The notes beneath the pieces were generated by a model. That model did not search any database and was not told the origin of the DNA. It saw only the letters and a list, made by a program, of their open reading frames with translations. DNA of 64,000 bases from an uncultured Armatimonadia bacterium (GTDB lineage: Bacteria > Armatimonadota > Zipacnadia > CAZGSV01): positions 2,094 to 66,093 of the forward strand of contig CAZGSV010000003.1 of assembly GCA_964528605.1 (NCBI GenBank), written 5' to 3'. Position numbers and translations under genes: made by a program. Of the stretch, positions 9,150-30,754 are shown one piece after another; positions within the stretch are counted from its first letter, which is position 1; each line of letters begins with the position of its first letter.

Positions 9150-9360
9150 GGCGGCCGTCCCCTACGCCTCGACGCCTGGCGGCGTCGCGGGCGGAGTCAA
9201 GTCTCCGCCCCTACGAGGGATGGGCGGTGCCTGCGGCGTCGCCCCGCCAAAGGCGGGGCTCCTACAAGGCGACGCCTAACGGCGTCGCTGAGGGTCGCGC
9301 CCAAGGGCGCTCCTACAAGTCCGAGGCCCGGCGGCGTCGCGCCCCTGTCTACTGTCTACT
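9150..9360. repeat. cluster of REP-like units (CTAC + GACGCC-TGGC/TAAC-GGCGTC palindrome, at 9161-9176 and 9271-9286, plus a degenerate third) followed by CTGTCTACTGTCTACT (9345-9360)
   Basis: Palindromes and direct repeats read directly. The same units recur at 16070, 18632 and 18778. Confidence 0.7.
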
Positions 9361-9369
9361 CCCTTGGGG

Positions 9370-10041
9370 TCATGTGCGCCCGGCTGCCCAGAGCGCCGCG
9401 TTGCAGAGGACGCGCTTGACCTCGGACTGGAAGTAAACGGGACAGGTCTCGTGCCCGGGGCGGAAGTAGAAGATGCGGCCCTTGCCCCGCGTCCAGCAGC
9501 AGCCCGAACGGAACTCCTCGCCGCCCTCGAAGTAGGAGTAGAAGACGACCGCCTCCGGAGTCGGCACCGCGAACGGCTCGTTGTACATCTCGTCGTGCGG
9601 GATGACGAAGTCGGTCACGCCCTGGGCGATGGGATGGTCGGGCAGCAGCACCTTGACGCGCTCGGACTTGTCGTCCTCGCGCCAGCCACCCAGGCCGCAC
9701 TCGGTGCCCATGAGGGCCTTGAAGGGCTTGGAGTAGTGCGCGGAGTGCACGGGGCAGAAGCCCATGCCGTCCTCCTTCACGCGGCGGACGACGCGCTCGA
9801 CGTAACGATCCTCGACATCGCCGTGGCGGCCGTGGCCGAACCAGAAGAGCACGTCGGCTTCCGCAAGCCTGGCCTCCGACAGGCCCTGCTCGGGCTCGTT
9901 GATGTGGGCGGCGACGACAGTGATGCCGCCGCAGGCGTTGAGGGCTTCAGCGATGGCGCCGTGGATTCCGTTGGGGTAGACGTTCCTAGGCTCGGTCCAC
10001 TCAGACCAGACCAACGCGCGCACCGGGCAACACTCGCTCAT
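9370..10041 (-). CDS. ThuA-like (trehalose-utilisation/GATase1-like) protein
   Basis: 223 aa from ATG (MSECCPVRALVWSEW...). ThuA-like pattern (HG..H....GIHGAIAEAL, GKGRIFYFRPGH). Confidence 0.6.
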   Translation of the reverse strand: MSECCPVRALVWSEWTEPRNVYPNGIHGAIAEALNACGGITVVAAHINEPEQGLSEARLAEADVLFWFGHGRHGDVEDRYVERVVRRVKEDGMGFCPVHSAHYSKPFKALMGTECGLGGWREDDKSERVKVLLPDHPIAQGVTDFVIPHDEMYNEPFAVPTPEAVVFYSYFEGGEEFRSGCCWTRGKGRIFYFRPGHETCPVYFQSEVKRVLCNAALWAAGRT

Positions 10042-10249
10042 CTCAGCCTCCTGCTCAGGGCCCGGACCGGCTTCGCTCGCGGGCACGGGTTGACTTGTAG
10101 CGCGGCATAGTAGGCGGGCGCGAGGCGGGGGTCAAGCGACCAGGGCTGACGGCGCGCTATGAGCGTTCCCGCCTCTGGGCTATAATGCGCCCGCTCGCCC
10201 CTGGCGGGCGCACCTCTGGCTGCGAGCCAAGCGGAAAGGAAGCGTAGCG

Positions 10250-10879
10250 ATGGCGAAGATCAAGACTTTGCTTTTCTGCGGCGGGGAGATTCACGACGGC
10301 ATCGGGTGCGGCACGGTCATGCAGGAGGTGCTCGAAGAGACCGGGGAGTTCGAGATAACTCGCGTGGAAAACGACCTCTCCGTCTTCGAGAAGCCGGACC
10401 TGAAGAAGTACGACCTGATCGCGTTCTTCTACACCGTGGGGCAGATAACGGAGGCGCAGAAGAACGGCCTGCTCAACTTCGTCGCTTCGGGCAAGGGCAT
10501 CGCGGGGGCGCACTCGATGGCCGACTCGTTCCGCGACTGCCCGGAGTACCGGGCGATGGTCGGCGGCTACTTCGTCACCCATCCGCGCTTCCGCCAGTAC
10601 CAAGTGAGCATCGTGGACCCCGAGCACCCGCTCACGCAGGGCCTGGACGAGTTCTTCGTGGAGGATGAGCAGTACATCACCGCCTACGACTCGAGGGTGC
10701 ACGTGCTCGCCTCCGCATTGTGGAAGGGGCAGGCGATGCCGGTGGCGTGGACGCACACCTGGGGCAAAGGCCGCGTGTTCTACCTGGCGCTGGGCCACAA
10801 CCCCGAGGCCTGCCGCCATCAGATGTTCAAGGTGCTCTTCCAGCGCGGCGCGAAGTGGGCAGGGACGGCCACTGAGTAG
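10250..10879 (+). CDS. ThuA-like protein (second, divergent copy)
   Basis: 209 aa, LLFCGGEIHDG...GKGRVFYLALGH, the same family signature as the neighbouring gene. Divergently transcribed. Confidence 0.6.
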   Translation: MAKIKTLLFCGGEIHDGIGCGTVMQEVLEETGEFEITRVENDLSVFEKPDLKKYDLIAFFYTVGQITEAQKNGLLNFVASGKGIAGAHSMADSFRDCPEYRAMVGGYFVTHPRFRQYQVSIVDPEHPLTQGLDEFFVEDEQYITAYDSRVHVLASALWKGQAMPVAWTHTWGKGRVFYLALGHNPEACRHQMFKVLFQRGAKWAGTATE

Positions 10880-10933
10880 TCGCCAGTGACCAGTGGCCGG
10901 TAAGAGACCGCGGCGCGCCGGCGGGTGAGGGTT

Positions 10934-11806
10934 ATGCGGCATCTGATACTCGACACCGACATCGGCGACGACGTAGACGATGCCTTTGCTCTGGCGCTGC
11001 TCTTGCGGCTGCCGCAGGCCAACCTCACCGCGGTCACGACCGTGCACGGCGCGGTGGAGGCGCGCGCACGCATTGCATTGAAGATGGTTGCGGCGGCGTG
11101 CCGCGAAGATGTGCCGGTGTACGCCGGCAGCCCTGGCCGGGGCGAGCGCAGCCGCCCACTCGCTTACGGCGGCTGGGCATCGGATTGGCATGACACTCAG
11201 CCGGCCGCAGGCGATGCGGCATCGTTCATCGTCTCGCGCGTCACGGACTCGCCGCCGGGGACGGTCACGCTTCTCGCCGTGGGCCCCCTGAGCAATGTAG
11301 CCCTTGCGCTAAGGCAGGAGCCGCGCGTGGCCGCGCGTTTGCGCCGGCTGGTGATAATGGGGGGCTCGGTGCGAGTGGGCTACAGGCCTGGGAGTCCGCC
11401 CTGTCTGGAGTACAACATCGCCTGCGATCCGGCGGCGGCCAAGGTGGTCTTTGAGAGCGGCGCGCCGCTGCTGGTGGCGCCTCTGGACGCCACCATGATG
11501 CTCCAGCCCTCGCGCGAGCAACTCGAGGCCTTGGCCGGCTCCCCTGCCCCTCTGGCGCGGGCCTTGCAGGAATGCCTGACCCTGTGGGGCCGGGGCGTGC
11601 CCACGCTCTTCGATCCGATGGCCGCCGCCTGCGCGCTGGACGACCCGGGCCTGCGGTTCGCGGAGACCGAGCGGATGCACCTCGAGGTCACCGACAACGG
11701 GCTAACAGTGGAACGCCGCGGCCTGCCCCCCAACGCCGAGGTGGCGACCAGCGCGAGGGCGCAGGATTTCCTCAACTGGTACTTCGACGCGCTCCTGCGG
11801 GCGTAG
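10934..11806 (+). CDS. nucleoside hydrolase (inosine-uridine preferring family)
   Basis: DTDIGDDVDDAFAL Ca-binding aspartate cluster close to the N-terminus. ATG at 10934 preferred over GTG at 10925. Confidence 0.75.
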   Translation: MRHLILDTDIGDDVDDAFALALLLRLPQANLTAVTTVHGAVEARARIALKMVAAACREDVPVYAGSPGRGERSRPLAYGGWASDWHDTQPAAGDAASFIVSRVTDSPPGTVTLLAVGPLSNVALALRQEPRVAARLRRLVIMGGSVRVGYRPGSPPCLEYNIACDPAAAKVVFESGAPLLVAPLDATMMLQPSREQLEALAGSPAPLARALQECLTLWGRGVPTLFDPMAAACALDDPGLRFAETERMHLEVTDNGLTVERRGLPPNAEVATSARAQDFLNWYFDALLRA

Positions 11807-11809
11807 TGA

Positions 11810-13759
11810 CTACCGTCCGGTTCCCGCTCTGGGCCGTTGGTGCTTTGCGACCAGGGAGTTCGCCCGCCGCAATTGCGCCTCGATCTGGCCCAGTTGCCGA
11901 GTGATGTACTCCCGCGGATGGCCGACGGCCTCCTCCGCCTCGTGCGCCAGCCCGGCCTCAACGCGTTTCAGGAAGCCACTGATGTCCGCCTCGCCCAACG
12001 GGTAGGGATCCGCGGCCCAGCCCGCGAGCAGCGTGGCCAACTCCGCCCGCCACTCGGCCTGTTCCGCCTCCGCCCCTGAGACCAGCGGCGCGGGGTTGCT
12101 CTCCCACTGCATTCCCCTAAGCGCCAGTATGAGGGGCTCGTAGTCGCAATCGGACCGCAGGCGCGGGAAGCCGAACTCCACCACGCGAACGTCCTCCGCG
12201 CCCTCGAGCCGGCGGTGGTAGTTGAGCCGCGAAAACTCCAGGCCCGTGTAGGGATTCACGATCTCGCCCTCGTAGATGCGGCGCTCGCGCAGCCGGCCCT
12301 GCTCGTCCTCCCTCACGTCGCCGCCGAGCAGCAAGAGGCAGATGAGGTCGTTGGGATGCTCGGGAGTGGCGAACGGCCTCCCGCGCGGCGGATCCACGGA
12401 GAGATGAATGCTGTGCGAAGGCACGGGCACGAAGCGGACGATCTCCTCGATGAGCCGCGCCAAGACCCAGGGGTCGCACGTGGCCGGCTTGGACAGGTCG
12501 CCCACGATGCGGTAACGGCCGAGCGCGAATTCGAGGAAGCCGCGGCTGCGCTCGCGCGAGCCGGTGACGAATTTGTGGTCGTCCCTATAGCCGCCGAGTT
12601 TCCACAGCCGGCGCGTCAGGTCGAAGTCGTGGAAATAGTAGAAGCAATCGAACACCGGGTCCTGTCCGGGCCCTGCGGCGATGGTTGCCCTGCCTAGGTG
12701 GCTCAGTTCAAGTTCCGCGCCCAGGGGCGTCCCCCCCTTAGAGCGATGCCCCGCCACCCAGGCCGCGATTTCCGCTGCCTGGTGCTGGTCGAACAGAGCC
12801 TCGGCGATGAGCACCCCTGCCGCCACGTAGTCGCTGTACTCCATCTCGCCGTGGTAGAGCCCGAGGTCGCGCGCAGCGATATGCTGCGCCAGCGCCTGCT
12901 TGCGTTCGTTGAGGTAGCGCAGGGCGATCAGCGAGGAGAGCATGTGCTGATGGAAAGCAGCGGGCGTGCGCGTCAGCGAACGAAACTCGCGGCGCACTTT
13001 ATCCTCAACCTCGTTGAAGACCGTGAAGCGCGCGATCAAGTCGAGGTATGCAGGGGCGTAGGGCTGCGCTGCCGGCTCCTCAGCGAGCCAGCGGAGGCTG
13101 GGCAAGGGCTGCTGCCGCACGGCGTAGCGCAGGAGATGCGGCGAGAGCGCCCCCTCGAACTGCGCTTGCAGCATCTCCTCGGTGGCGCCGCCCAGCAACT
13201 CGGCCCGGATGCGTCCTTGCACGGCTGCCGACTTCTCGTCGCCCACCTCGGACTGCAGCAGGCGCTCCAGGCGCTCAGCGAGGTGCTCCTCTACGCGTTC
13301 CTCCGGCCCCATTCCCTCGGCGGCGCCAAAGGCGCCGGGGTTGCCCACGTAGGTGTAGGCGGCCACCTCCTCGCCTTCCACAACGACGGACACCTGGCGC
13401 CGAAAGTACAGGTGGCCCTCGCCCTCGTATTCGTCCATGCGGAGCAGCGACTCGGCGTCGAGGCCCTCGATGACCTTGCCGCGGACGGTGCGCCCTTCCT
13501 TGGCGATGATGTAGGGATAGGCCGAGCCCCCCCCTGCACGCTCGAACCCGCGCAGGATGGCGTCGCGGTAGTGGAAGCCCTTGCCCGTGAGCGCGCGCAC
13601 GTGTCGGGGGTCGAGCAGCGTGCCATAGACGAAGAGGCGGTAGGTTGGCGGCTTGGCCCTGGGCTGGGCGCTGGGCGCGCGCGGGTCCTGATTCCGCTGG
13701 TCCGCTGTGTCCGTCACGCCCTCCCGCCTCTTGGCCGGGCTACTAGCCTTTCCAGCCAC
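11810..13759 (-). CDS. large hypothetical protein with N-terminal gamma-glutamylcyclotransferase (GGCT/AIG2)-like domain
   Basis: YRLFVYGTLLDP...EGYLRMDEYEGEG matches the GGCT-like fold signature. The remaining ~500 aa were not recognised. The 5' end overlaps hypB by ~45 nt, so the true start may lie further downstream. Confidence 0.5.
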   Translation of the reverse strand: MAGKASSPAKRREGVTDTADQRNQDPRAPSAQPRAKPPTYRLFVYGTLLDPRHVRALTGKGFHYRDAILRGFERAGGGSAYPYIIAKEGRTVRGKVIEGLDAESLLRMDEYEGEGHLYFRRQVSVVVEGEEVAAYTYVGNPGAFGAAEGMGPEERVEEHLAERLERLLQSEVGDEKSAAVQGRIRAELLGGATEEMLQAQFEGALSPHLLRYAVRQQPLPSLRWLAEEPAAQPYAPAYLDLIARFTVFNEVEDKVRREFRSLTRTPAAFHQHMLSSLIALRYLNERKQALAQHIAARDLGLYHGEMEYSDYVAAGVLIAEALFDQHQAAEIAAWVAGHRSKGGTPLGAELELSHLGRATIAAGPGQDPVFDCFYYFHDFDLTRRLWKLGGYRDDHKFVTGSRERSRGFLEFALGRYRIVGDLSKPATCDPWVLARLIEEIVRFVPVPSHSIHLSVDPPRGRPFATPEHPNDLICLLLLGGDVREDEQGRLRERRIYEGEIVNPYTGLEFSRLNYHRRLEGAEDVRVVEFGFPRLRSDCDYEPLILALRGMQWESNPAPLVSGAEAEQAEWRAELATLLAGWAADPYPLGEADISGFLKRVEAGLAHEAEEAVGHPREYITRQLGQIEAQLRRANSLVAKHQRPRAGTGR

Positions 13760-14394
13760 GCGAGCCAGGCGTCCATGCCTTCCCCGCTCATGGCCGAGAG
13801 CGCGATGACCTCGACGCCCGGAGCGACCGCGCGCACGGTCTCGCGCAGGCGCGCCAACGAGACCGGCAAGTGCGGGAGCAGGTCAATCTTGCTTATGAGC
13901 GCCGCCGCCAGCCCCTGGAAGATCGCGGGATACTTGAGCGGCTTCTCCTCGCCCTCGGTGACGCTGAGCAGCACGACGCGCGCGTTCTCGCCCAGGTCGA
14001 AGGCGGCGGGGCAGATGAGGTTGCCCACGTTCTCGATGAAGAGCAGGTCCGCGGCCCGCAGGTCCAGGGAATCGAGCGCGCGCGCCACCATGCCAGCGCT
14101 CAGATGGCATTCGCCGCCGAAGGCGCTCGTGGTCACTTGCACGGCGGGGATGCCCAGGCGGTGGAGCCTGCGAGCGTCAAGATCGGTGGCGACATCGCCC
14201 TGCACGGCCGCCAGCCTCCAGCGCCCGCCCGCCAGTTCAGCCGTCTTCTCCAACAGCGAGGTCTTGCCTGCCCCCGGCGAACTCATCAGGTTGACGGCAA
14301 CGCAGCCGGCCTCCCGCAGGCGCCGACGAATGGCGTCCGCCTGTGCGCGGTCGTCCGCCAGCATGTCCTCGCCTATCTCTATGCGCTCGGACAT
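13714..14394 (-). CDS. hypB: hydrogenase/urease-type nickel-incorporation GTPase HypB
   Basis: P-loop SPGAGKTSLLE and ENVGNLICPAAFDLGE signature. ATG (MSERIEIGEDML) chosen at 14394. Confidence 0.85.
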   Translation of the reverse strand: MSERIEIGEDMLADDRAQADAIRRRLREAGCVAVNLMSSPGAGKTSLLEKTAELAGGRWRLAAVQGDVATDLDARRLHRLGIPAVQVTTSAFGGECHLSAGMVARALDSLDLRAADLLFIENVGNLICPAAFDLGENARVVLLSVTEGEEKPLKYPAIFQGLAAALISKIDLLPHLPVSLARLRETVRAVAPGVEVIALSAMSGEGMDAWLAWLERLVARPRGGRA

Positions 14395-14747
14395 TTCTGC
14401 TTCTCCTCGACCAACTCCAGCGACTCGATCTCCAGTTCCCGGCCGCTCACCAACTCCACCTGTTCGCTCCCGCACGCTGGGCACCTGAACGGCGGCCCGC
14501 GCACTTCGGACTCCTGTCCGCACCCTGAGCAGCGCAGCCTGGGCGGCACCGACTCGATCTCGACTCGTGCTCCGGCAAGCGGACTGTGCGGCAGCAGCAA
14601 CTCCAGGCCAAACCTGAGCGCCTCCACCTCGACGCCGGAGAGTTGCCCGACGCGCAGGCGGATGGCCGCCGCGCGGGTGCCCGGGCGGCTGTGCAGCGCC
14701 CTGGAGGCCCTGTCCACGATTCGACTCGCCAGCGCGAATTCGTGCAT
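14379..14747 (-). CDS. hypA: nickel-insertion protein HypA
   Basis: Starts MHEFALA, with two CxxC pairs (CSGCG...CPACG). 122 aa. 3' end overlaps the hypB start. Confidence 0.8.
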   Translation of the reverse strand: MHEFALASRIVDRASRALHSRPGTRAAAIRLRVGQLSGVEVEALRFGLELLLPHSPLAGARVEIESVPPRLRCSGCGQESEVRGPPFRCPACGSEQVELVSGRELEIESLELVEEKQKCPSA

Positions 14748-14928
14748 TCTCCGGTTCGGCGGTCCCGCCGCTTACGCCAGTGGTTCCGCCGCCATCCTCC
14801 CCAGTTTACCCGGCCCCGTCAACGGGCGTTCGGCGCCGAGTTCGCCGGCTGGCGGCCGCGGGATTTGAGGAAGCGGGCCGGTTGATGCACAATTGCACAC
14901 CACTTCCATATGGGAGGGAGCATCGGCA

Positions 14929-15996
14929 ATGGTTCGAGTAGGTGTTATCGGCGCCGGCATGATCGCTCAACGCGAGCACATCCCCGGTTATCAGAAGTGC
15001 GGCAACGCGGAGGTCGTGGCGGTTGCGGACCCGCTGGAGGACCGCGTCAAAGAGGTAGCGTGCTGCTTCAACATCCCCAACGTCTACACCGAGTGGCGCA
15101 AAGTGGTGCAGCGGAAGGACGTTGACGCCGTGAGCGTGTGCACGCCCAACGCGACCCACGCGGAGATCTCCATCGCCGCCGCCAAGGCAGGCAAGCACGT
15201 GCTGGTGGAGAAGCCGATGGCCACCTCCATGGCGGAGGTGGACGCCATGATAGCCGCGGCCGAGAAGGCCGGCGTGCATCTCATGGTGGAGCAGACCGTC
15301 CGCTTCTACCCCGAGTCGGAGGCCGCCAAGGACATCCTCGAGAGCGGCATACTCGGGAAGATCCAGACCGTCCGCGGTCGCGTCAGTCACGGCGGGCCCG
15401 AGTATTGGAGCCCGACGGGCAAATGGTTCTTGCAGAGGAAGCACGCCTTCGGCGGCACCATGTGCGATCTGGCCATTCACGGCATTGATCTAATCCGCTG
15501 GCTGGTGGGCGAACCCATCGTCGAGGTCGCGGGCTTCCAGGGGCTGCTCGAGAAGAAGGGCACCGACGTGGAGGACAACGGCGTCTTCATTTACAAGTTC
15601 GCCAGCGGGGCGATGGGCACCATGGAGTCCTCGTGGACCACGCGCCCGGAGGACACCTGCGTCCACCTCTACTGCCAGAACGGCAACATCAAGTTGACGC
15701 TATGGCAGGAGGAGGAGACGGTGGTGACGCAGCCGATGGTGGTGGAGGTGGAGTGCCCCGCTGGGGCGTTCGTGCCCAGCCTGCCGAAGGAGAGCCGGCG
15801 GGGCGGGCCGTTCGCCTACTTCGTCCACTGCATTGAGACCGGCGAGAAGCCGTTCGTCTCGGGCGAGGAGGGCGGCGCGAGCCTGGAGGTCATTCTGGCG
15901 GCCTACGAATCCGCCCGCACGGGCAAAATCGTCCGGCTGCCTCTGCCGCGCAAGAGGGCAGAGGCCGCGCCCACACGGGGCAAGAAGCGGAGGTAG
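14929..15996 (+). CDS. Gfo/Idh/MocA-family oxidoreductase
   Basis: MVRVGVIGAGMIAQ Rossmann start and EKPMA motif. ATG at 14929 preferred over the upstream extension. Confidence 0.8.
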   Translation: MVRVGVIGAGMIAQREHIPGYQKCGNAEVVAVADPLEDRVKEVACCFNIPNVYTEWRKVVQRKDVDAVSVCTPNATHAEISIAAAKAGKHVLVEKPMATSMAEVDAMIAAAEKAGVHLMVEQTVRFYPESEAAKDILESGILGKIQTVRGRVSHGGPEYWSPTGKWFLQRKHAFGGTMCDLAIHGIDLIRWLVGEPIVEVAGFQGLLEKKGTDVEDNGVFIYKFASGAMGTMESSWTTRPEDTCVHLYCQNGNIKLTLWQEEETVVTQPMVVEVECPAGAFVPSLPKESRRGGPFAYFVHCIETGEKPFVSGEEGGASLEVILAAYESARTGKIVRLPLPRKRAEAAPTRGKKRR

Positions 15997-16069
15997 AGAG
16001 CGCGACACCTGCGCGCGCGGGTTCCTCCTACGGCGGGCGAGCGGGAGCCTGCTCTACAGCGCCGACCCC

Positions 16070-16144: not shown

Positions 16145-17419
16145 CTACCGTTTGTCCACGCCGGGGATGGTCGTCCGCGGCTCGACGGGGATGCTCAGCA
16201 ATTCGTCGGCGTTCTCGTGGATCTTGGCGCAGGCGTCCACGATGGAATCGAGCCCCTTCTCCTCCTCCAGCAGCAGCCAGTGGAAGAGCGTGACGCCCTC
16301 GTCGTAGGCGGCCCTCTCCGCAACCGGGAGCGAGAAGCGCCGCGGGTCGATCTCCTTCCAGTGCGCCTCGCTGAAGTGATAGCGCGGCTTGGTGTGCGGT
16401 TGGTAGATGTCGCAGTTGTTCAGCGGCGAGTACGGCGTCCATAACCCGAGCCCGAGTTCCTTGCCGAGCGCCACGTTGAAGGCATCGCGCGGCGCGCCCT
16501 TGAAATGCTCGCGGTTGTAACGGAAGCAATAGAGGTAGCAGTCCTGCCGGGTCACCCGCGGGTCGCGCTTCATCGGCGCCAGGCCAGGAATCTCCGCCAG
16601 ACGCTTGTTGAGGTAGAGGGCACGCTCGTCACGCAACTTGGTGCGCTCCTCGAGCAGTTCGAACTGCGCGAGCAAGGTGGCGGCCTGGAACTCGGTGATG
16701 CGGAAGTTGCCGCTCTGGATGTTCTCGCCCTCGCCGTCCTTGAACTTGCGGCCGCAGTTGCGCAGCGAATAGACGCGCAAGAACAGGTCGCGGTCGTCCA
16801 TTAGGATGATGCCGCCCTCGCCCGAGGGCAGCACCTTGGTCTCCTGACAACTGAACGAGCCGAGATTGCCGATGGCGCCCGCGCCCTTGCCCTTCCAGAA
16901 GGAGCCGTGCTGGTGCGCCGTGTCTTCGACGACGAATAGGTTGTGGCGCTTGGCGATGTCCATGATCGCGTCCATGTCGGCCATGCAGTTGTAGAGGTGA
17001 ACGGGGATGATGGCCTTGGTGCGCGGGGTGATGGCCTCCTCCGCCTTCTTGGGGTCAATGCAGTAGGTGTCCGGCTCGACGTCCACGATCATGGGCACGG
17101 CGTTGACGTCGAGGCAGGCGGCGGCGGTGGCCTGGAAGGTGAGCCCGGGGACGATGACCTCGTCGCCCGCGCCGATGCCCAGGGCCTCCAGGCAAAGTTG
17201 CAGGGAGACGGTGCCATTGGCCACGCAGAGAGCGTACTTGGCGCCCTTGAACTGGGCGAACTTCTCCTGAAACTCCCACTCCTTGGGGCCGTCGAAAGAC
17301 CACTTGTCGGCCTTTACGACCTCGAGGATGAGGTCTATCTGGCGCTGGGTGTGCTGCGGCCAGGTGGGCCAGGGCTTGGTGCGCACCGGCGTGCCGCCGT
17401 GGATTGCTAGTTTGGCCAT
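16145..17419 (-). CDS. DegT/DnrJ/EryC1/StrS-family PLP-dependent sugar aminotransferase
   Basis: MAKLAIHGG...KWSFDGPKEWEFQEKFA... conserved pattern of the family. ATG at 17419. The 300-aa upstream in-frame extension in the ORF track overlaps the divergent aldolase gene and is rejected. Confidence 0.8.
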   Translation of the reverse strand: MAKLAIHGGTPVRTKPWPTWPQHTQRQIDLILEVVKADKWSFDGPKEWEFQEKFAQFKGAKYALCVANGTVSLQLCLEALGIGAGDEVIVPGLTFQATAAACLDVNAVPMIVDVEPDTYCIDPKKAEEAITPRTKAIIPVHLYNCMADMDAIMDIAKRHNLFVVEDTAHQHGSFWKGKGAGAIGNLGSFSCQETKVLPSGEGGIILMDDRDLFLRVYSLRNCGRKFKDGEGENIQSGNFRITEFQAATLLAQFELLEERTKLRDERALYLNKRLAEIPGLAPMKRDPRVTRQDCYLYCFRYNREHFKGAPRDAFNVALGKELGLGLWTPYSPLNNCDIYQPHTKPRYHFSEAHWKEIDPRRFSLPVAERAAYDEGVTLFHWLLLEEEKGLDSIVDACAKIHENADELLSIPVEPRTTIPGVDKR

Positions 17420-17520: not shown

Positions 17521-17554
17521 AAGTAGACAGTAGGTAGCAGACAGTAGATAGTAG
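17521..17554. promoter_or_regulatory. ACAGTAG direct-repeat array (AGTAGACAGTAGGTAGCAGACAGTAGATAGTAGC) in the divergent promoter region
   Basis: Repeats have 14-nt phasing and lie in an AT-enriched patch between divergently transcribed aminotransferase and aldolase genes. The same motif is at 9345, 30512, 30657 and 30739. Confidence 0.4.
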
Positions 17555-17602
17555 CGGGCAAGGGGACCTGACGTAGGCGCCCGGCGTCGGAAGAGGGCAA
17601 GG

Positions 17603-18388
17603 ATGAAGGCCAACAAGACCAAGCAGATTCTGCGGCAGGGCGGGACGGCGGTGGGGACGATGGTGGCGGACTTCCGCAGCCCGGAGGTGGCGGCGGTGCT
17701 GGCCTCCGCCGGCTTCGATTTCCTCATCATTGACAACGAGCACGGCCCCTACGACTTGGAGACGGACCACGAGATCATCCGCCACGCGCGCAAGTGCGGC
17801 ATTGACGCCTTCGTGCGCGTGCCGGACGCGCAGTATCACCTCATCGCGCGCACGCTCGACATCGGCGCCGAGGGGGTGATGGTGCCGCGCGTGGAGGAGC
17901 GGGCTACCGTCGAGGAGATCGTTGCCGCCGTCAAGTACCCGCCGGTGGGCAGGCGCGGCTACGGCGTGAGGAGCATCATCACCGACCGCGAGCCGGTCTC
18001 CATGCCGGAAGCCATCGAGTTCCTCAACGCCAACACGCTCATCATCATCCAGATTGAGACGGCCCGCGCCGTGGAAAATGTCGCGGACCTGGTCTCCGTG
18101 CCTGGCGTGGACGTGGCCCTCATTGGGCCCGCGGACCTCTCGGTGTCTCTGGGAGTTCCCGGGGAGTCCGAGCACCCCAAGATGATAGAGGCGATCCAGC
18201 GGGTAGTGGACGCCTGTCAGAAAGCGGGCGTTGCGGCCTCCGCGCATCTGGGAAGCGTGGAGCAGTTGCGCTTCTGGCACGAGCGCGGGATGCGCTGCCT
18301 CGTCTGCTCCACCGACAGCGGCTTCATGCATGCCGCCGCGAGCGAATGCGCTTCGGCGCTGAGACGGATAGCGGCCACCGGCCAGTGA
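17603..18388 (+). CDS. HpcH/HpaI-family 2-keto-3-deoxy-acid aldolase
   Basis: 261 aa; LIIDNEHGP and IIQIETA motifs of the HpcH/HpaI aldolase family. RBS GAAGAGGG upstream. Confidence 0.8.
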   Translation: MKANKTKQILRQGGTAVGTMVADFRSPEVAAVLASAGFDFLIIDNEHGPYDLETDHEIIRHARKCGIDAFVRVPDAQYHLIARTLDIGAEGVMVPRVEERATVEEIVAAVKYPPVGRRGYGVRSIITDREPVSMPEAIEFLNANTLIIIQIETARAVENVADLVSVPGVDVALIGPADLSVSLGVPGESEHPKMIEAIQRVVDACQKAGVAASAHLGSVEQLRFWHERGMRCLVCSTDSGFMHAAASECASALRRIAATGQ

Positions 18389-18599
18389 GCAGTGCGGAGT
18401 GGCGAGTGGGCAGTGCTCAGTGGCCAGCGGGCAGTGCGCGCCACGGGCAGAAGAAGTAGCCGGTAGGCGGCATCACGGGCGGTGAGTCGCAGGGCTGCGA
18501 CAAGGGAAGTCTGTGCGGTGCGCCCGGTTTCTCGAGGCCTGATGGGGTCTTGCGCCCGGGGTAGACCCGGACGCTACCGCCCGGTACGCGGGCGGAGGC

Positions 18600-18800
18600 G
18601 AGGGCTGTTGGTGCACCCCCGGACGCTGCCCGACGCCTGGCGGCGTCGCGGCTGCCTGACGCGAGTGCCCTGGGGCGACCGAATAGGGGAGGACGTAGGG
18701 GCAGGCCCCCGTGCCTGCCCTGGGTAGCACCAAGGCCCTCGCGCCCCATCGCGACAAGAATGTCGCTCCTACAGCGTCTACGCCTGGCGGCGTGCCCTAG
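18600..18800. repeat. REP-like units (GACGCCTGGCGGCGTC at 18632-18647; CTACGCCTGGCGGCGTG at 18778-18794) plus hairpin GTAGGGGCAGGCccccgtGCCTGCCC
   Basis: Near-identical to the units at 9161/9271. Located in a 400-nt convergent intergenic region. Confidence 0.65.
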
Positions 18801-24084: not shown

Positions 24085-24212
24085 TCCTCTACCGAACCAT
24101 CCCGAGGCGCATAGGCCGCAGGTTACCGGGGCGCCTTGACGCGGTCAAACGGCCTGCCCGTGTTGACAACTCCTGCGGGGGACGATTGACTGCCGGCTTA
24201 GGAGGTGCGGCC

Positions 24213-24674
24213 GTGAAGAAGATCATGATCGTCTACCACTCGCAAGAAGCCGGCAATACCAAGGCCATGGCCGAGTTGGTCGCGGAGGGCTGCAAGCAGG
24301 TGCCTGGCGTCAGAGTGTCGCTGATCAACACCAACGAGGCACGGGTGGACATGGACACATTCGCCGCTTGCGACGGCGTGGCGCTGGGGTCGCCTGACTA
24401 CTACTCCTATGTGGCCGGGGGGCTGAAGCAGTTCTTCGACGACGTCACGCTCGCCGCCTGGGCGGGCAAAGGCGTGAAGGGCAAGCGATACGTGGGCTTC
24501 GTGACCCACGGTGGCGGCGGTAACGCCATCAAGAGCCTCGAGAGCCTGGCCAAGTCCTGCGAGTTCGAGAAGGTGGCGGAAAGCGTCCTGTCGCGGGGCA
24601 AGCCGGCGGGCGAGGTGGTTGACGCGGCTCGCGCCCTGGGCAAGGCCCTCGCGGAGAAAGTGTCGAAAGGCTAG
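24213..24674 (+). CDS. flavodoxin-fold FMN protein (WrbA/NAD(P)H-FMN reductase-like)
   Basis: KKIMIVYHSQEAGNTKAMAELV flavodoxin-like start. GTG start 9 nt after a GGAGG RBS. Confidence 0.6.
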   Translation: MKKIMIVYHSQEAGNTKAMAELVAEGCKQVPGVRVSLINTNEARVDMDTFAACDGVALGSPDYYSYVAGGLKQFFDDVTLAAWAGKGVKGKRYVGFVTHGGGGNAIKSLESLAKSCEFEKVAESVLSRGKPAGEVVDAARALGKALAEKVSKG

Positions 24675-24821
24675 AGGACCCGCAGCGCTCTGCGAGGGCG
24701 ATCAGTGCGCCTTGCCATCACCCTTTTGGGCGACCTGCGCGCCGTTTCCCCCGGCTTGCGGCCGGCTACGCGCTGTGGTAACACCCCAAAGGTCGCCTTT
24801 GACGCATCCTAACCTATCGAG

Positions 24822-27272
24822 GTGATTGACTTGCCCATTTCCACCCTGATTGCGCAATCCTCCGTCCTGGGCGGGCCGTGGATTGACATCTCCGACTGTG
24901 TGTTCGTGAGCGCCGGCCCGATCAAAGAGAAAGCGTTCCAGATGCTGGTGGAGGAGGTGGAGAAGCGGAGCGGCGTGCACTTCCCCAAGGTGGCGCGGCT
25001 CGCGGACGCCGGCGGCCGCCCGGCGATGGTGGTAACGACCCGCGAGGCCGCCTCACAGGTGGGCATAGACGCCAAGAAGGTTCCCGGCAATGACTCGCCC
25101 AGGCCGATCCCCGATGGCTTTGCGCTGCACCTCGACAGCCGCATGCGCAAGGAGCCCACCCTTCTGGCCATTGGCAACGACGCCCGCGGCGCCATGTACG
25201 CGGTCGGCTGTTTCCTCAGAACGGCGCGCTACAGCGAGGGCAAAGTGGAGTTCCCCGCCGACTTCAGCATCGTGACCGCTCCGCGCTATCCCCTCCGCGG
25301 CCATCAACTAGGCTACCGGCCGCGCAGCAACACCTACGACCAGTGGGGCGTCGAGGAGTTTGAGCAGTACCTGCGCGACCTCATCGTCTGGGGCGCGAAC
25401 GCCGTGGAACTCATTCCCCCACAGTCCTCTAACGACAACATCTCAGGCAAAGCCGATTTTCAGGCGCAGGCTTGGGGGATGAACGCGCGACTCTCGCAAC
25501 TTATCGGCGGCGACTACGGCCTGGAAGTCCACGCCTGGATTCCCGTTGACGATCGCGTGGTGCCGGGCACTGAGTTCGGCAGCCTGAAGCCCTGGGAAAC
25601 CGTCTGCCCCTCGAATCGCGACGGGCGGAAGTACATCCTGGACGACCGACGCCGTCTCTTCTCCGAGATGCCGCATCTCGATGCCGTCTTTGTTCCCGGC
25701 GGCGACCCTGGCGGCTGCACCTGCGACAAGTGCCAGCCCTACGCCAAGACCTTCATCGGCCTCTGCGCCGACGTCGCCCGCATCCTCGCTGAGTCCCATC
25801 CCGAGGGGAAAGTCTGGCTCTCCGACCAAATCTTCTCCTTCGAGGACGAGGAATACCTTTGCGATTATCTCGAACGCGAACACCCCAATTGGCTCGGCGG
25901 CCTGGTCTACGGCCCTTCCTCAGTCCCCACCGTGGAGGAAATGCGCCAGCTCGTCTCACCCCGCTACCCCATCCGCTTCTACCCTGACATCACACACTCC
26001 GCGCGCTGCCAGTACCCGGTCATTGACTGGGACCCGGCCTATGGTCTGATTGAGGGCCGCGAGGTCATCAACCCGCGTCCCGTGGACGAGAAGCACATCC
26101 AGAACCTGCTGTCTCCCTACGCCTGCGGCTCCATCTCGTACTCCGACGGGGCGCATGACGACGTCAACAAGATCATCTGGTCGGCGCTCGACTGGGACCC
26201 GAGCCGGGAGGCGCGGGGCATCGTGCTCGAGTACGCCCGCTACTTCCTCGGGGAGGAGTTCGCGGAGCGCTTCACCGAGGGCACCTTCATGCTGGAGCAG
26301 AACTGGCAAGGGCCGCTGGCGACCAGCAAGGTGGTGCCGGAGACGCTGCCCTTCTGGCAGGCGATGGAGAAGGAGGCGCCACCCAAGGTGGTCAACAACT
26401 GGCGCTTCCAACTCGGCCTGATGCGGGCCTACCTGGACGCCTTCGTGCAGCAGCGGGTGCTCGCCGACATCGAGGCGGAGCAGAAGGCGCGCGAGATACT
26501 GCGCGGCGCGGCGGAGGGCGACCCGGACGCGGCGATGCGGAAGGCCCATAAGTTCCTGGCGGAGTCGCAGGCCCGGACGGTTGCCCCGGAATGGCGCGAG
26601 CGCATGAACGAACTGGGCCGCTCCCTGCGGGAGAACATCGGGATGAAGTTGGCCGCGGTCCTAGGCGCTGAGCCGGAGCGGGCGGATTTCCTTGACGACC
26701 TGGACGAGCCGCTCAACAACGGCCACTGGATGATGACCGAAATGGAGAAACTCCTGCGCTCCGACAACGAGGCCGAGAAGCGCGCCGGCATTGCCCGCAT
26801 CCTCTACTGGGAGGATCCCGGGCCGGGAGGCTTCTACGACGACCTGGGCACGCCCACTAGGCAGCCGCACCTGGTGTATCCGAAGCCGGTGAGCGAGGAC
26901 CCCGGCCGGCTCGAGACCGCGGCCCAAGAGATAGATCACAAGGGCCTCAAGGGCGGCCGCATGTCGTGGCGCACGACCGCCTGCGCCTTCAGAAAGAGTT
27001 CGCTCCACATGCGCTACGAGGGACTGGACCCGGCGGGGCGCTACCTGCTGCGCGTGACGTACCCGGCGCATCGCCCGGGCACGAGTGTGCGTCTGGTGGC
27101 CAACGGGCAATTCGAGTTGCAGCCGATGACGGCGATGCCGCGCGAGTTGCACCAGCGGGAGTACGAGATTCCCGCGGAGGCCACCAAGTCCGGCAAGTTG
27201 GAACTCGCCTGGAGCCGCAAGGGCGCGCGCTGCGTCTGCCTGTGCGAGGTCTGGCTGATCAAGCAGCAGTAG
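24822..27272 (+). CDS. large glycoside-hydrolase-like protein (N-terminal beta-sandwich + TIM-barrel-like core), specificity unknown
   Basis: 816 aa. Segments such as RGHQLGYRP...YDQWGVEEFEQYLRDLIVWGANAVEL resemble GH20/GH67/GH89-type architectures but I cannot assign a family. Confidence 0.35.
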   Translation: MIDLPISTLIAQSSVLGGPWIDISDCVFVSAGPIKEKAFQMLVEEVEKRSGVHFPKVARLADAGGRPAMVVTTREAASQVGIDAKKVPGNDSPRPIPDGFALHLDSRMRKEPTLLAIGNDARGAMYAVGCFLRTARYSEGKVEFPADFSIVTAPRYPLRGHQLGYRPRSNTYDQWGVEEFEQYLRDLIVWGANAVELIPPQSSNDNISGKADFQAQAWGMNARLSQLIGGDYGLEVHAWIPVDDRVVPGTEFGSLKPWETVCPSNRDGRKYILDDRRRLFSEMPHLDAVFVPGGDPGGCTCDKCQPYAKTFIGLCADVARILAESHPEGKVWLSDQIFSFEDEEYLCDYLEREHPNWLGGLVYGPSSVPTVEEMRQLVSPRYPIRFYPDITHSARCQYPVIDWDPAYGLIEGREVINPRPVDEKHIQNLLSPYACGSISYSDGAHDDVNKIIWSALDWDPSREARGIVLEYARYFLGEEFAERFTEGTFMLEQNWQGPLATSKVVPETLPFWQAMEKEAPPKVVNNWRFQLGLMRAYLDAFVQQRVLADIEAEQKAREILRGAAEGDPDAAMRKAHKFLAESQARTVAPEWRERMNELGRSLRENIGMKLAAVLGAEPERADFLDDLDEPLNNGHWMMTEMEKLLRSDNEAEKRAGIARILYWEDPGPGGFYDDLGTPTRQPHLVYPKPVSEDPGRLETAAQEIDHKGLKGGRMSWRTTACAFRKSSLHMRYEGLDPAGRYLLRVTYPAHRPGTSVRLVANGQFELQPMTAMPRELHQREYEIPAEATKSGKLELAWSRKGARCVCLCEVWLIKQQ

Positions 27273-27361
27273 GCCATAGCCCTGCAGGCCGGGGGCGCCC
27301 GCCCGGCCTCCGCTCTCGACTCCCTAACGCGGCGCTGGTAGAGGCGCAACGTGACTAGGCG

Positions 27362-28111
27362 ATGAGAGTCGCTCTTGCTGTCAACTACGTCCTGCCGGAC
27401 GCGGACGCCAACCTTGAGGCGATCGTGCGCATGACCGAGGAGGCCGCCCGCGAGGGCGCGGAACTAGTCCTGTTCCCTGAGGCGGCGCTGACCGGTCTGA
27501 TCAACAACGGCGACCCGGAGCATGATCTGCCGCTTGGCCAGCCGATACCGGGCCCGGTGACGGATTCGCTGGCGGCGGTCGCGTGCAGGCTGGGCATCTA
27601 TCTAGCCATCGGGCTGCTGGAGCGGGAGGGGCATAGGCTATACGACTCGGCTGTGCTCCTGACGCCAGAAGGCGGAATCGTGCTGAGGTACCGCCGCCGT
27701 CAGCCGCAGTGGCACGGGAGGGACGCCGATCCAGCCGTCTATCGTCAGGGCGAGGAAGTGGCGAAATGCGAGACGCCACTGGGCTCCTTCGCTTTCCTGA
27801 TCTGCGGGGACCTCTTCGACGACAACATCGTGGCACGCGTTCGGGACCTGCGTCCTGACTGGCTGCTCTTCCCTTTCGCGCGGTGTTTCGACGACGGCTC
27901 ATGGGACCGGCAGCGCTGGGAGCGAGAGGAGCAGGCGGCGTACGTGGAGCGCGTGCGGCTAGTGAGAATAACGACGCTCATGACGAACTACCTCGCGGAC
28001 TCTAGCCTTGACGGCGGCTCGTTCGGCGGGGCCCTGGTGGTGGGCGGGGATGGCAAGGTGTTGGCTAGCCTGCGCCTGGGGGAGGTCGGCATCTTGGTGG
28101 CAGACCTCTAA
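27362..28111 (+). CDS. carbon-nitrogen hydrolase (nitrilase/amidase superfamily)
   Basis: LVLFPEAALTG (catalytic Glu context) and FLICGD (catalytic Cys context). 249 aa. Confidence 0.7.
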   Translation: MRVALAVNYVLPDADANLEAIVRMTEEAAREGAELVLFPEAALTGLINNGDPEHDLPLGQPIPGPVTDSLAAVACRLGIYLAIGLLEREGHRLYDSAVLLTPEGGIVLRYRRRQPQWHGRDADPAVYRQGEEVAKCETPLGSFAFLICGDLFDDNIVARVRDLRPDWLLFPFARCFDDGSWDRQRWEREEQAAYVERVRLVRITTLMTNYLADSSLDGGSFGGALVVGGDGKVLASLRLGEVGILVADL

Positions 28112-28333
28112 CCCGAGCGTGCGCGGGGCACACGATCGCAGGAAAGACCGGGGGCGTCACAGGGGCACTGGGGACAGTCCACGACCAGGGCGCCGCCACC
28201 CGCCTGAGGCGGGGACAGTCCCCGTGAGCGGGTCGTAGGGGCGGGCCAGCCCTTGCGCGGGCGAACGGGGCCCTGCCCCCACGGCCGGGCGACCAGGCGA
28301 GGTCGCCGCTACAGAGGGCGGCCGGGAACGAAA

Positions 28334-28519
28334 CTAGGTTGCTTCGCGAGGCGCCGTGGGGATGTGGGTGACGATCATGAAGAGGCCAGTGCCCACGAGC
28401 AGGATGAGGAGGCCCCGCTGGTAGAGCCCGAGCCACCACGGTTGGCACAGCGCGAACACCGCGAAGGCCATCAGCACCTGCGCCAAAGTCTCAAACCATC
28501 CTACGACTCGGCCGACCAT
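28334..28519 (-). CDS. small hydrophobic protein (61 aa) directly downstream of the ABC ATPase gene
   Basis: Two predicted TM segments, 12 nt after the upstream stop. Could equally be noise. Confidence 0.25.
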   Translation of the reverse strand: MVGRVVGWFETLAQVLMAFAVFALCQPWWLGLYQRGLLILLVGTGLFMIVTHIPTAPREAT

Positions 28520-28531
28520 CGCGCCCCTCCC

Positions 28532-29623
28532 TCAGGACAACGCCCGCTCCGTCTCGCGGTCGAAGAGGTGCATCCGCGCCTGGTCAATGGCAAAATGGAC
28601 CGTCGCTCCCATCGCCGGCTTGAACGTCGGCGGCGTCTTGGCGCGGATGATCTGCTCGCCAACCTTGAGATCAATGATGTTCTCCGAACCCAGCGGCTCG
28701 ACCACATAGACCTCCGCCGGCAGCCAGCCTCCGGGCGCGTCGGTGGACACCGCCACGTCTTCCGGCCGCGCGCCGAGCACCAGCGCCCGTCCCGCGCCCT
28801 GCTGCGTCATCTCGGGACCGAGCGGCGGCGTCAGCCTCAGTTGGAACTGCGCGCGCGTGGCGTTCAGCGCCGCGCCGTCGCCGCTCACGGTGCAGTCCAC
28901 GAAGTTCATGCCGGGGCTGCCGACGAAGTGCGCGACGAACAAGGTCTGCGGGTTGTCGTAGACCTGCGCCGGCGTGCCGACCTGCTGCAGCAGCCCGTTG
29001 CTCATCACCGCGATGCGGTCGGCCATGGACATCGCTTCCACCTGGTCGTGCGTGACGTAAACGGTGGTGGCGTGCAGGTCCACTTGCAGGCGCTTGAGTT
29101 CCGCGCGCATCTCCTCCCGCAGTTTGGCGTCGAGCGTGCTCAGCGGCTCGTCCATGAGGAAGGCGCGCGGGCGCCGCACCATCGCTCTTCCCAGCGCCAC
29201 GCGCTGCATCTCGCCCCCGGAGAGTTGGCCGGGCCTGCGCGAGAGCAGGTCGCCGATGTGCAGCACCTCGGCGACCTCCCTCACCGCGCGCTCTATCTGG
29301 TCGCGCGGCGTGCGCTGGGCGCGCAAGGGGAAGGCGATGTTGTTGTAGACGGTCAGGTGCGGATAGAGCGCGTACATCTGGAACACGAAGGCGATGTCGC
29401 GATCCGCGGGAGAGAGGTTGGTCACCGGCTGCTCGCCGATGTGGATCTCACCCTCATCGGGCCGGACCAGGCCCGCGATGCAGCGCAGCGTGGTGGTCTT
29501 ACCGCTGCCGGAGGGACCCAGCAGAACCATGAACTCGCCGTCCTGAATGTCCAGGTCCACTCCGGCGACGGCCACCGTGGCGCCGTAGCGTTTTCTCAAG
29601 CCGCGTATCTTGATGGATGCCAT
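28532..29623 (-). CDS. sugar ABC transporter ATP-binding protein (MalK/UgpC-type with C-terminal TOBE domain)
   Basis: Walker A GPSGSGKTT, signature LSGGEMQRVALGRA, Walker B FLMDEPLS. ATG (MASIKIRGL) at 29623. Confidence 0.9.
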   Translation of the reverse strand: MASIKIRGLRKRYGATVAVAGVDLDIQDGEFMVLLGPSGSGKTTTLRCIAGLVRPDEGEIHIGEQPVTNLSPADRDIAFVFQMYALYPHLTVYNNIAFPLRAQRTPRDQIERAVREVAEVLHIGDLLSRRPGQLSGGEMQRVALGRAMVRRPRAFLMDEPLSTLDAKLREEMRAELKRLQVDLHATTVYVTHDQVEAMSMADRIAVMSNGLLQQVGTPAQVYDNPQTLFVAHFVGSPGMNFVDCTVSGDGAALNATRAQFQLRLTPPLGPEMTQQGAGRALVLGARPEDVAVSTDAPGGWLPAEVYVVEPLGSENIIDLKVGEQIIRAKTPPTFKPAMGATVHFAIDQARMHLFDRETERALS

Positions 29624-29631
29624 CAGCGTTC

Positions 29632-30489
29632 CTAACGACGCACGGCGCCGAAGGTGACGCCGCGCAGGAGATGGTTGCGCACCAGGAAGGTGAATACCAG
29701 CACCGGCAGCAACATGACAAACCCGGAGGCGGAGACCTCGCCCCACTGGATGCCCTCGGGCCGTATCTTGCCGACGATCTCGGGGGGGGCGGTGCGCGCG
29801 TTGGCGCCGGTGAGCACGAGCGCAAAGGCGAACTCGTTCCAGGCGGTTATCAGGCAGAAGACGGCGGTGGCGGCCATGGCGGGGATGGCCTGCGGCAGCA
29901 CTACCTTGAAGAAGGCGCGCGCGCGCGAATAGCCGTCGCACATTGCCGCTTCCTCGTAGTCCGCGGGAATCTCGTCAATGAACCCCTTCATCATCCACAC
30001 GGCAAAGGCCATGTTGAAGACAGTGTACAGGAAGATCATGCCCAGATGGGTGTCGCGCAGGCCCCAGTCGCGGTACATGAGGAAGACGGGGATGACGATG
30101 GCGATGGGCGGGAGCATGCGCGTGCTCAGGATGAAGAAGAGCAGGTCGGCCTTGCCCTTCATGGGGAAGCGCGAGAAGGCATAGGCGGCGAGGGTGCCGA
30201 GCAGAACGGCCAAGATGGTGCTGATGGTGCCGATGATGATGCTGTTGGCCAGCCGGCTGGGGAACTCGGTGGCGCCGGCCAACTGCCCCTTGGCCACGAA
30301 GACGTTGCGGTAGTTGAGCAGGGTGGGCTTGAAGAGATGCTTGGGAGGCATGGCGAAAACGTCGCCCGGCGCCTTCAGCGAGGTGGCCAGCATCCACAGG
30401 ATGGGGAACAGGTAGAACAGCAGGGCACCCAGGAGAATGACGAGCACGAGGACGCGCCAGAGCCCGAGCCCGGCCCTGGGCCTCACCAT
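29632..30489 (-). CDS. sugar ABC transporter permease (MalG/UgpE-type)
   Basis: EAAMCDG...RAFFKVVLP EAA loop. 286 aa from the ATG at 30489. Confidence 0.85.
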   Translation of the reverse strand: MVRPRAGLGLWRVLVLVILLGALLFYLFPILWMLATSLKAPGDVFAMPPKHLFKPTLLNYRNVFVAKGQLAGATEFPSRLANSIIIGTISTILAVLLGTLAAYAFSRFPMKGKADLLFFILSTRMLPPIAIVIPVFLMYRDWGLRDTHLGMIFLYTVFNMAFAVWMMKGFIDEIPADYEEAAMCDGYSRARAFFKVVLPQAIPAMAATAVFCLITAWNEFAFALVLTGANARTAPPEIVGKIRPEGIQWGEVSASGFVMLLPVLVFTFLVRNHLLRGVTFGAVRR

Positions 30490-30511
30490 GTCCACGGCGC
30501 CACCCCCGCCC

Positions 30512-30547
30512 GAGTAGACAGTAGCCGGTAGACGGTAGGTGTAGTAC
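30512..30547. promoter_or_regulatory. ACAGTAG/ACGGTAG direct repeats (14-nt phasing) 23 nt upstream of the permease start
   Basis: GAGTAGACAGTAGCCGGTAGACGGTAGGTGTAGTAC read directly. Further copies at 30657-30669 and 30739-30751 in the same 265-nt intra-operon gap. Confidence 0.4.
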
Positions 30548-30754
30548 TCACGCAGGTTGTTGACACTTTGGGGCAGAGAAGAGGGCGTTGCGACACTGGT
30601 AGTAGGGGCGGCATCTTCTGCCGCCCGCCGGCTGTGCGGACGCGATAAGATGGTGTCCCTACTGTCCCCTCCCGCATCGTGCCAGGCACGCCTTGACCCT
30701 CCTTCGGTCTGGTCGTCTGCCTCTCTCTGCCGCCTGCCACCTACTGTCTGCCTC

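Follow-up and report, generated by a model that had tools for sequence, protein, structure and literature searches.

The 64,000-nucleotide stretch analysed here (the window), from an uncultured Armatimonadia bacterium, carries on its minus strand an ATP-binding cassette (ABC) operon with genes for a substrate-binding protein, permease 1, permease 2 and an ATPase. The two permease genes (BPD_transp_1) are separated by an unusually long spacer of 265 bp (30490-30754), and the arrays of heptanucleotide repeats in this spacer, together with similar ones elsewhere in the window, are the subject of this study. At the permease 1 end lies array E (30724-30758, minus strand), five degenerate heptads reading (A)TAGGAG GCAGACA GTAGGTG GCAGGCG GCAGAGA and phased with the permease 1 stop, since its TAG (30757-30755) falls in the first unit. 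The central spacer (30549-30723, minus strand) has GGTAGTAG, a GC hairpin at 30598-30626, a lone unit that we call D (30655-30669, minus strand, GGGGACAGTAGGGAC) and no called gene. At the other end, array C (30514-30548, plus strand) reads GTAGACA GTAGCCG GTAGACG GTAGGTG, followed with a shift of -1 by TAGTACT; on the sense (minus) strand of the operon it is a row of CTAC heptads ending 24 nt ahead of the permease 2 ATG (30489). The plus-strand order in the spacer is GTAG (C) and then CTAC (D, E). As argued below, E and C are probably the 5' and 3' arms of a decayed element.

Further arrays lie elsewhere in the window. Array A (9346-9359, minus strand) consists of two perfect heptads, GTAGACA GTAGACA (period 7, 2.3 copies and 100% match in Tandem Repeats Finder, TRF), and begins 10 nt past the TGA stop of the minus-strand gene thuA (9370-10086), in a convergent 3' spacer. 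Array B (17523-17557, plus strand) has five phased heptads, GTAGACA GTAGGTA GCAGACA GTAGATA GTAGCGG, in the divergent spacer between the genes of a DegT-type aminotransferase (16145-17419, minus strand) and an HpcH aldolase (17603-18388, plus strand). Two arrays are absent from the preliminary description of this DNA. The first is a run of eight CAGTGNN heptads at 18383-18438 (plus strand; CAGTGAG CAGTGCG GAGTGGC GAGTGGG CAGTGCT CAGTGGC CAGCGGG CAGTGCG) in a convergent spacer, with the aldolase TGA stop (18386-18388) in its first unit. The second, 17 nt 3' of the first and in the same orientation, is a pair of GTAG heptads, GTAGCCG GTAGGCG (18456-18469, plus strand; GTAGCCGGTAGG at 18456).

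The preliminary description had singled out ACAGTAG as a recurrent direct repeat with 14-nt phasing. Its copies do stand where it had placed them, with matches at 9349 (minus), 17527 (plus), 17541 (plus), 30518 (plus), 30659 (minus) and 30741 (minus). Taken alone, this heptamer is only marginally enriched (6 seen against 2.4 expected, with at least 6 in 5 of 100 shuffles), and it is the phased form, GTAGNNNGTAG, that is non-random (8 seen against 0.55 expected, a number reached in none of 100 shuffles). The 11-mer GTAGACAGTAG has three exact copies, and 17 copies against 5.7 expected when up to two mismatches are allowed. TRF reports period 7 at 9345-9360, 17522-17554 and 30514-30538, a single row of period 14 at 17525-17551, and period 21 (score 85) at 18380, in the CAGTGNN array. 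The repeats are thus regularly spaced, as had been claimed, but their basic period is 7 nt, and the 14-nt phasing is a dimer of alternating heptads. The repeat unit is GTAGRCR, set head to tail beyond chance, as the TRF periods and the excess of GTAGNNNGTAG indicate, and often arranged in alternating 14-nt dimers.

The nature of the arrays in the permease spacer is suggested by the corresponding gap in related genomes. We retrieved permease 2 homologues at 90%, 85% and 80% identity with their flanks; the nearest named homologues, in Poribacteria and Armatimonadetes, are only about 60% identical. In three loci at 85% (L137-L139) and one at 90% (L141), the gap between the permease genes is occupied by a gene of 114-118 amino acids belonging to PF05635, the S23p or "23S rRNA intervening-sequence protein" family (23S_rRNA_IVP, also bAvd). 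This gene is preceded in L141 by GTAGAGA GTAGACA GTAGATA GTAGTCA, which begins at the permease 1 TAG stop, and in L137 by GTAGCCG GCATACG GTAGACC GTAGAGG GTAGGCG. In both loci inverted CTAC heptads follow the PF05635 gene and reach up to or into the start of permease 2. The locus at 80% identity (L140) has a gap of 53 nt, no cassette and a single AAGTAGGTGG. Array C aligns with the 3' arms over 25 nt in each case, at 92% with L137 and at 88% with L141, and judging from these alignments it is homologous to them. By the same comparison, the window keeps both arms at the site of the relatives' cassette, without the open reading frame (ORF).

In L137 the called start of permease 2 lies 2 nt past the S23p stop (2087-2125), and the CTAC arm, which has no stops in that direction, gives the called permease its first ~10 codons (MPSIVYRLLST...). 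The arm may here supply coding sequence to the downstream permease gene. The same locus has a fluoride riboswitch 3' of the ABC operon (4413-4474, 55 bits), with no Rfam match at the corresponding place in the window.

The likeness extends to PF05635 genes of other bacteria. We gathered loci with such genes from four sources: loci fetched for other reasons (L042, L073, L074), five hits of a homology search (L142; L143; L145, Acidobacteria; L147, Pirellulales; L149, Sungbacteria), eleven "viral" contigs and six plasmid records of cultured strains, cyanobacteria included. Arms were scored by ungapped complementarity with a cut-off of at least 14.5, which replaced a noisy comparison of 110-nt flanks with RNAduplex. 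Complementary flanking arms of 17-37 nt were found in 21 of 25 non-redundant loci from many phyla. The median score was 20 when both arms came from one cassette and 7 when arms of different cassettes were combined. Autocorrelation of the arms was strongest at a lag of 7 or 14 in 20 of these 21 and of 8 in one. A frameshifted copy (L073) has visible arms of period 9-10, two loci (L159 and L167) have weak arms and one (L161, 26% identity) has none. The cassettes are almost always placed between two co-directional genes, such as priA-fmt, prfB-ftsE or cas10-cmr3, and the spacers on either side of the PF05635 gene are short, near-symmetric (38/41, 37/38, 28/29, 36/40 and 35/36 nt) and made of inverted tandem repeats.

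The repeat unit varies widely among these cassettes. It is GTAGACA/GTAGACG in L142 and L147, identical to the unit of the window, GTAGTCA in L145, GTAGGTA in L143, GGGAGTA in L156 and L157, GCACTTA in L042, TAAGTGG in L074, GGCNNTC in L151-L155 and L160, CAGGAGT in Nostoc punctiforme, GGGTGTA in Calothrix, and GACAGAG/GACGGAG in Azospirillum lipoferum, where the cassette is a genuine intervening sequence (IVS) of 23S rRNA. Units that differ among cassettes and yet match within each bear the mark of selection for a stem. For the RNA of the L147 cassette, the predicted fold is closed by a stem of about 30 bp (z = -5.4), and Rfam 15 gave no match on the arms of ten cassettes. On the strength of these sequences, arrays of the kind found in the window, sometimes with the very same unit, serve across bacteria as the complementary arms of PF05635 cassettes. 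The solved structure closest to the proteins that they flank is the pentameric XCC0516 (PDB 2GSC).

Arrays of GTAG heptads were also examined independently of any gene. A scan of representative genomes for GTAG(N3)x4 gave at least 120 loci, which cover GTAG units only, so that their frequencies are not genome-wide estimates; the matches listed did not include the source genome, and the scan gives neither density nor taxonomy for the source organism. The matches listed are scattered over many phyla and nearly all are true tandem arrays; the unit CAGTAGA occurs among them in Acidobacteriota, Gemmatimonadota, Fibrobacter and Nitrospiria. Among these matches, 38 of 149 arrays have phased CTAC units within 800 nt downstream, mostly at 10-100 nt, and one has them upstream, against a CTAC background of 6.9% in random 800-nt windows. 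Since GTAG-CTAC and CTAC-GTAG are both capable of forming hairpins, pairing by itself does not account for this polarity. Furthermore, 71 of the 134 testable arrays among the matches listed (53%) follow the end of a same-strand ORF, against 9% of random positions, when an ORF of at least 120 codons has to end between -60 and +21 nt from the array start. The stop codon is itself the TAG of the array in 33 of the listed cases, in units 1, 2 and 3 in 21, 6 and 6 of them, respectively. The window obeys both rules: it has the GTAG-then-CTAC polarity, and arrays E, A and that at 18383 begin at, or 10 nt past, a sense-strand stop.

Two arrangements among the arrays of other genomes recall those of the window. 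As in the window, units of the CAGTG type come after the CAGTAGA units of a Gemmatimonadota locus (L058), and three Pyrinomonadaceae loci (L039, L062 and L083) have inverted CAGTAGA pairs around ORF-less centres of 60-100 nt.

The anchoring of arrays to stop codons is also what one would expect of stand-alone RNA elements of 3' untranslated regions, acting either as phased UAG stops in three frames or as arrays for RNA-binding proteins (HutP-like UAG-N4, or TRAP-like). A period of 7 nt does place TAG in all three frames within three units, as can be read from the sequence. Yet stop-free cassette arms exist (GGCNNTC in L151-L155 and L160; GGGGCTT), the CAGTG array has a stop in its first unit only, and array B follows no gene. 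The arrays also occur in phyla without HutP and TRAP, and no gene for either protein turned up, although neither was tested for. We regard such elements as an improbable explanation.

Much of what we know of the turnover of the arrays would suit plain simple sequence repeats (SSRs), grown by slippage in permissive intergenic DNA, devoid of function and only coincidentally similar to S23p arms. Heptanucleotides are indeed reported as the most abundant class of long SSRs in many large, high-GC genomes, with no known function (Mrazek 2007, as cited in PMC4679880 and PMC4692102). The arrays are absent or altered in relatives at 76-90% identity, and at the permease site relatives at 85-90% differ from the window in both the number and the sequence of the units. 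A locus 97% identical (L126) keeps the CAGTG array at the same length, with 7 substitutions over 61 nt, whereas the following 330 nt of adjoining spacer have about 11. One of its units reads CAGTAG and another GTAGTG; the change from CAGTGG to CAGTAG implies that CAGTG and CAGTAG units interconvert. Slippage alone, nevertheless, would not be expected to produce, across the phyla of the listed matches, the polarity of 38 to 1 or the stop anchoring of 53% against 9%. Nor does it account for the homology of array C with cassette arms at the same site, or for the 12-mer AGTAGACAGTAG shared by three separate loci of the window. Moreover, five near-identical contigs keep the spacer between the permease genes with the same copy numbers and vary by substitutions only (6 columns, 3 of them within arrays), and over a set of six such contigs the copy number is constant. 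We therefore consider it unlikely that the arrays are nothing more than SSRs.

Our preferred reading is that the permease spacer contains an ORF-less, decayed IVS-like stem element in the operon transcript, and that the remaining arrays are orphans of the same family; we give it a probability of roughly 60%. A complete cassette, as seen in other genomes, consists of inverted heptad arrays around a small PF05635 gene, set between two co-directional genes, with the 5' arm starting at or beside the stop of the upstream gene and the 3' arm ending just ahead of the downstream start. Because the arms are complementary within a cassette while units differ between cassettes, the selected feature would be a long stem that loops the cassette out. 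In the window, E (with D) and C would be the two arms of a cassette that has lost its ORF and much of its pairing, although a stem between E and C may still arise in the operon transcript. We would take array A, array B, the CAGTGNN array and the GTAG pair at 18456-18469 for orphan arms, or for members of this family that grew by slippage, and they probably have little or no function. By analogy with the rRNA versions, stems in mRNA spacers could be substrates of RNase III.

Several observations weigh against this reading. We found no similarity to PF05635 in the spacer or elsewhere in the window with phmmer and tblastn, and searches of the spacer with blastn and tblastn against the L137 and L141 cassettes for a trace of the ORF returned only the end of permease 1 and the 3' arm; with neither gene nor residual similarity, only position and arms speak for a cassette relic. 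The pairing of E with C (30516-30538 with 30727-30749) is only 78% complementary over 23 nt, compared with the near-perfect arms of intact cassettes. It appears in both the minimum free energy and the centroid structure, but the fold of the spacer is no better than that of shuffled sequences (z = -0.92). A comparison of the arms of the window with those of L001 revealed no compensatory changes, and E as found in L001 is a slightly poorer partner for C. For arrays A and B we found no inverted partners, so both are orphans, as would also be expected of plain SSRs, and B has no gene end before it. Finally, a PF05635 gene was present in only 3 of 120 loci of 8 kb among the matches listed, and adjacent to the selected array in only one. 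This means that most arrays are ORF-less pairs or orphans, as in the window, and that the association runs from gene to arms and not from every array to a gene. Covariance models of Rfam 15 had no match in the window, nor in the permease spacer at E<=1, and the window contains no rRNA (Rfam scan), tRNA or transfer-messenger RNA.

A broader proposal can be put forward only tentatively, and we hold it to be possible rather than probable. The arrays of the window may be orphan and decayed arms left by S23p cassettes, which would form a widespread and apparently mobile family. These cassettes would insert at gene junctions, with stop-anchored inverted heptad arms that loop the cassette out of the host transcript, as an mRNA counterpart of the IVSs of 23S rRNA. 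Such cassettes and their ORF-less derivatives might then be a major source of the excess of heptanucleotides in bacteria.

The preliminary description had offered another function for the repeats, as operators of a direct-repeat-binding regulator. As formulated here, this would be a transcription factor of carbohydrate genes, which could include omega-type binders of heptads; ribbon-helix-helix (RHH) repressors such as omega do bind 7-bp tandem heptads. It had noted that two arrays stand directly upstream of start codons. The gene layout is as it described, and array B does lie in a divergent promoter region; array C, 24 nt upstream of its start codon, lies inside an operon spacer. Among the array loci (A, B, 18383/18456, C and D/E), B alone occupies a promoter region; A and 18383/18456 are found where the 3' ends of two genes converge, and C/D/E within the operon spacer. 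Array B also contains TAGACA-17-GATAGT, which looks like a sigma-70 promoter; we rejected this candidate as a by-product of the repeat unit, and C has no such site. In orthologous promoters, where absence of the motif would by the preliminary description's own measure speak against operators, the locus with an aldolase 76% identical (L127) keeps the synteny with the divergent aminotransferase gene and has no array in the intergenic region, and the one at 90% (L128) has a lone CAGTAGAC together with REP-like GTAGGAG hairpins. No transcription factor gene emerged when 20 neighbouring genes were scanned with Pfam, and in other phyla the same unit flanks unrelated genes, at the priA-fmt, prfB-ftsE and cas10-cmr3 junctions. 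On these sequence comparisons the operator explanation is largely refuted by the orthologous promoters, and we give it very little credence: the ACAGTAG motif is not a carbohydrate regulon signal. The alternative suggestion of the preliminary description, a second small repeat family, fares better as a dispersed heptanucleotide family, and can be sharpened by tying it to the inverted arms of PF05635/S23p cassettes instead of to carbohydrate regulation.

The tetranucleotide GTAG is also the conserved head of repetitive extragenic palindromes (REPs), and the arrays might be elements of the REP or bacterial interspersed mosaic element (BIME) type, recognised through this head by a REP-associated tyrosine transposase (RAYT). 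Genuine REP-like units, GTAGG(A/G)GC with a GC hairpin, do adjoin arrays A and 18456. The single heptad units, in contrast, have no hairpin, the cassette arms of other genomes include units other than GTAG, and no RAYT gene turned up in the 64-kb window, where no dedicated search for one was made. This origin therefore seems highly improbable for the heptads themselves.

The REP-like units (GCTCCTAC on the plus strand) are found beside GC-rich hairpins, such as CGACGCC-NNN-GGCGTCG, at 9100-9340, 18560-18800 and 30598-30626, the first of these regions having five units spaced by about 50 nt in a single orientation. Copies of ACGCCTGGCGGCGT lie at 9172, 18633 and 18780. These units look like a BIME-like repeat family in its own right, having the tetranucleotide GTAG in common with the heptads.

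Other features of the window concern neither family. The preliminary description had reported a pair of GGGGACAGTCC at 28165/28208; two copies do exist, but at 28170 and 28211, and they are not heptad-phased and are not counted in the heptad family. This pair brackets a CCGCC-TGA-GGCGG hairpin. The 9-mer GGGGACAGT has four copies against 0.66 expected, a borderline excess (four were reached in 2 of 100 shuffles), all intergenic: a pair within 28170-28224 and single copies at 30661-30669 and 39540-39548. Its recurrence is possibly due to chance. The genes dnaA (39605-41017) and dnaN (41230-42345) lie further along, with three DnaA-box-like 9-mers clustered at 39555-39586, another in the dnaA-dnaN spacer (41101-41109) and TTGACG-17-TATAAT at 39349-39377. 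This region is probably a replication origin. At 58748-58868, where two minus-strand ORFs overlap, there is a 12/24-nt periodic repeat with about 10 copies of GCAGGCGCTGTG (67% match), probably a coding repeat.

Some of the records with PF05635 genes deserve mention in their own right. On a plasmid of Picosynechococcus sp. PCC 7003 (L164, NZ_CP016476.1, 126152-127299), the cassette, which has inverted repeat arms of period ~8, separates cas10/cmr2 from cmr3 in a type III-B CRISPR operon, leaving gaps of 35 and 36 nt. On plasmid AZO_p2 of Azospirillum lipoferum 4B (L166, NC_016586.1, 13989-15130), an unannotated S23p ORF is found inside a 23S rRNA gene, with heptad arms of GACAGAG/GACGGAG; this classical IVS is absent from the annotation of the record. 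Contigs bearing PF05635 genes were mostly very short (0.5-3 kb) in the hit table of the homology search, as would fit assemblies that break at the repeat arms, and such cassettes are probably under-represented in metagenome-assembled genomes.

Taken alone, the window carries a modest message, and its interest lies mainly in the general association that it exposes. This link would join two puzzles, namely the abundance of heptanucleotides, noted in 2007 and still unexplained, and the nature and spread of S23p-bearing IVSs, which rRNA genes alone have been known to carry since the 1990s. Should inverted heptad arms be a general signature of S23p cassettes in operons, thousands of genes annotated as "four helix bundle protein" and many orphan arrays would share one explanation. 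The arms would then predict RNase III-type processing sites within operons, and would provide an annotation rule for miscalled starts and stops, given that an upstream gene can take its stop from them and that, in L137, the downstream gene apparently takes its first codons from the arm.

Among known systems, the REP/BIME elements of operon spacers, such as the E. coli malE-malF spacer, resemble the window in placing a structured repeat with GTAG between cistrons of an ABC sugar transporter, where it may contribute to differential mRNA stability. They differ in that the stem of the window would come from two distant heptad arrays and not from a compact palindrome, and in the lack of evidence for a RAYT. 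The heptanucleotide SSRs of other bacteria, including the cyanobacterial short tandemly repeated repetitive (STRR) sequences, TAACTGA in Beggiatoaceae (PMC4679880) and GGGAATC in Xanthomonas and Nostoc (PMC4692102), share with the window runs of 2-8 units of 7 nt, an intergenic location near gene ends, enrichment between aligned ORFs and a sporadic phylogenetic distribution. The unit of the window, GTAGRCR, in contrast, does not form G-quadruplexes and is not TAACTGA, and these papers report neither a link to PF05635, nor inverted pairing, nor anchoring to the upstream stop. In the literature at large, of which our coverage is incomplete, we found no paper that links PF05635/S23p genes outside rRNA to heptad arms.

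The closest parallel is the S23p-bearing IVS of 23S rRNA, as in Coxiella burnetii and Leptospira (PMC4990558). The C. burnetii IVS carries an S23p ORF and a terminal inverted-repeat stem of 28 bp, with a tandem run of GACAGAT heptads upstream of the ORF, two or three in number and variable among strains; RNase III cleaves where the first repeat begins, and the ORF is undergoing decay (PMC4990558). The element of the window lies in an mRNA operon spacer and not in helix 45 (or 25) of 23S rRNA. It lacks an ORF, and the stem has decayed; cleavage by RNase III is known only for the rRNA versions. The two kinds of element nevertheless have in common, when the cassette is complete, a small PF05635 ORF between terminal inverted repeats that form a long stem, as well as a heptad copy number that may vary, and an ORF that is prone to decay or deletion. 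They also share arms made of tandem heptads, GACAGAT in Coxiella, GACAGAG/GACGGAG in Azospirillum and GTAGACA in the window, where C and E are phased heptad arrays like the arms of 20 of the 21 armed cassettes. The element in the permease spacer is best classed as an S23p-type IVS architecture that has moved from rRNA to the setting of an mRNA operon spacer only in the sense of its location, and that lacks the ORF here.

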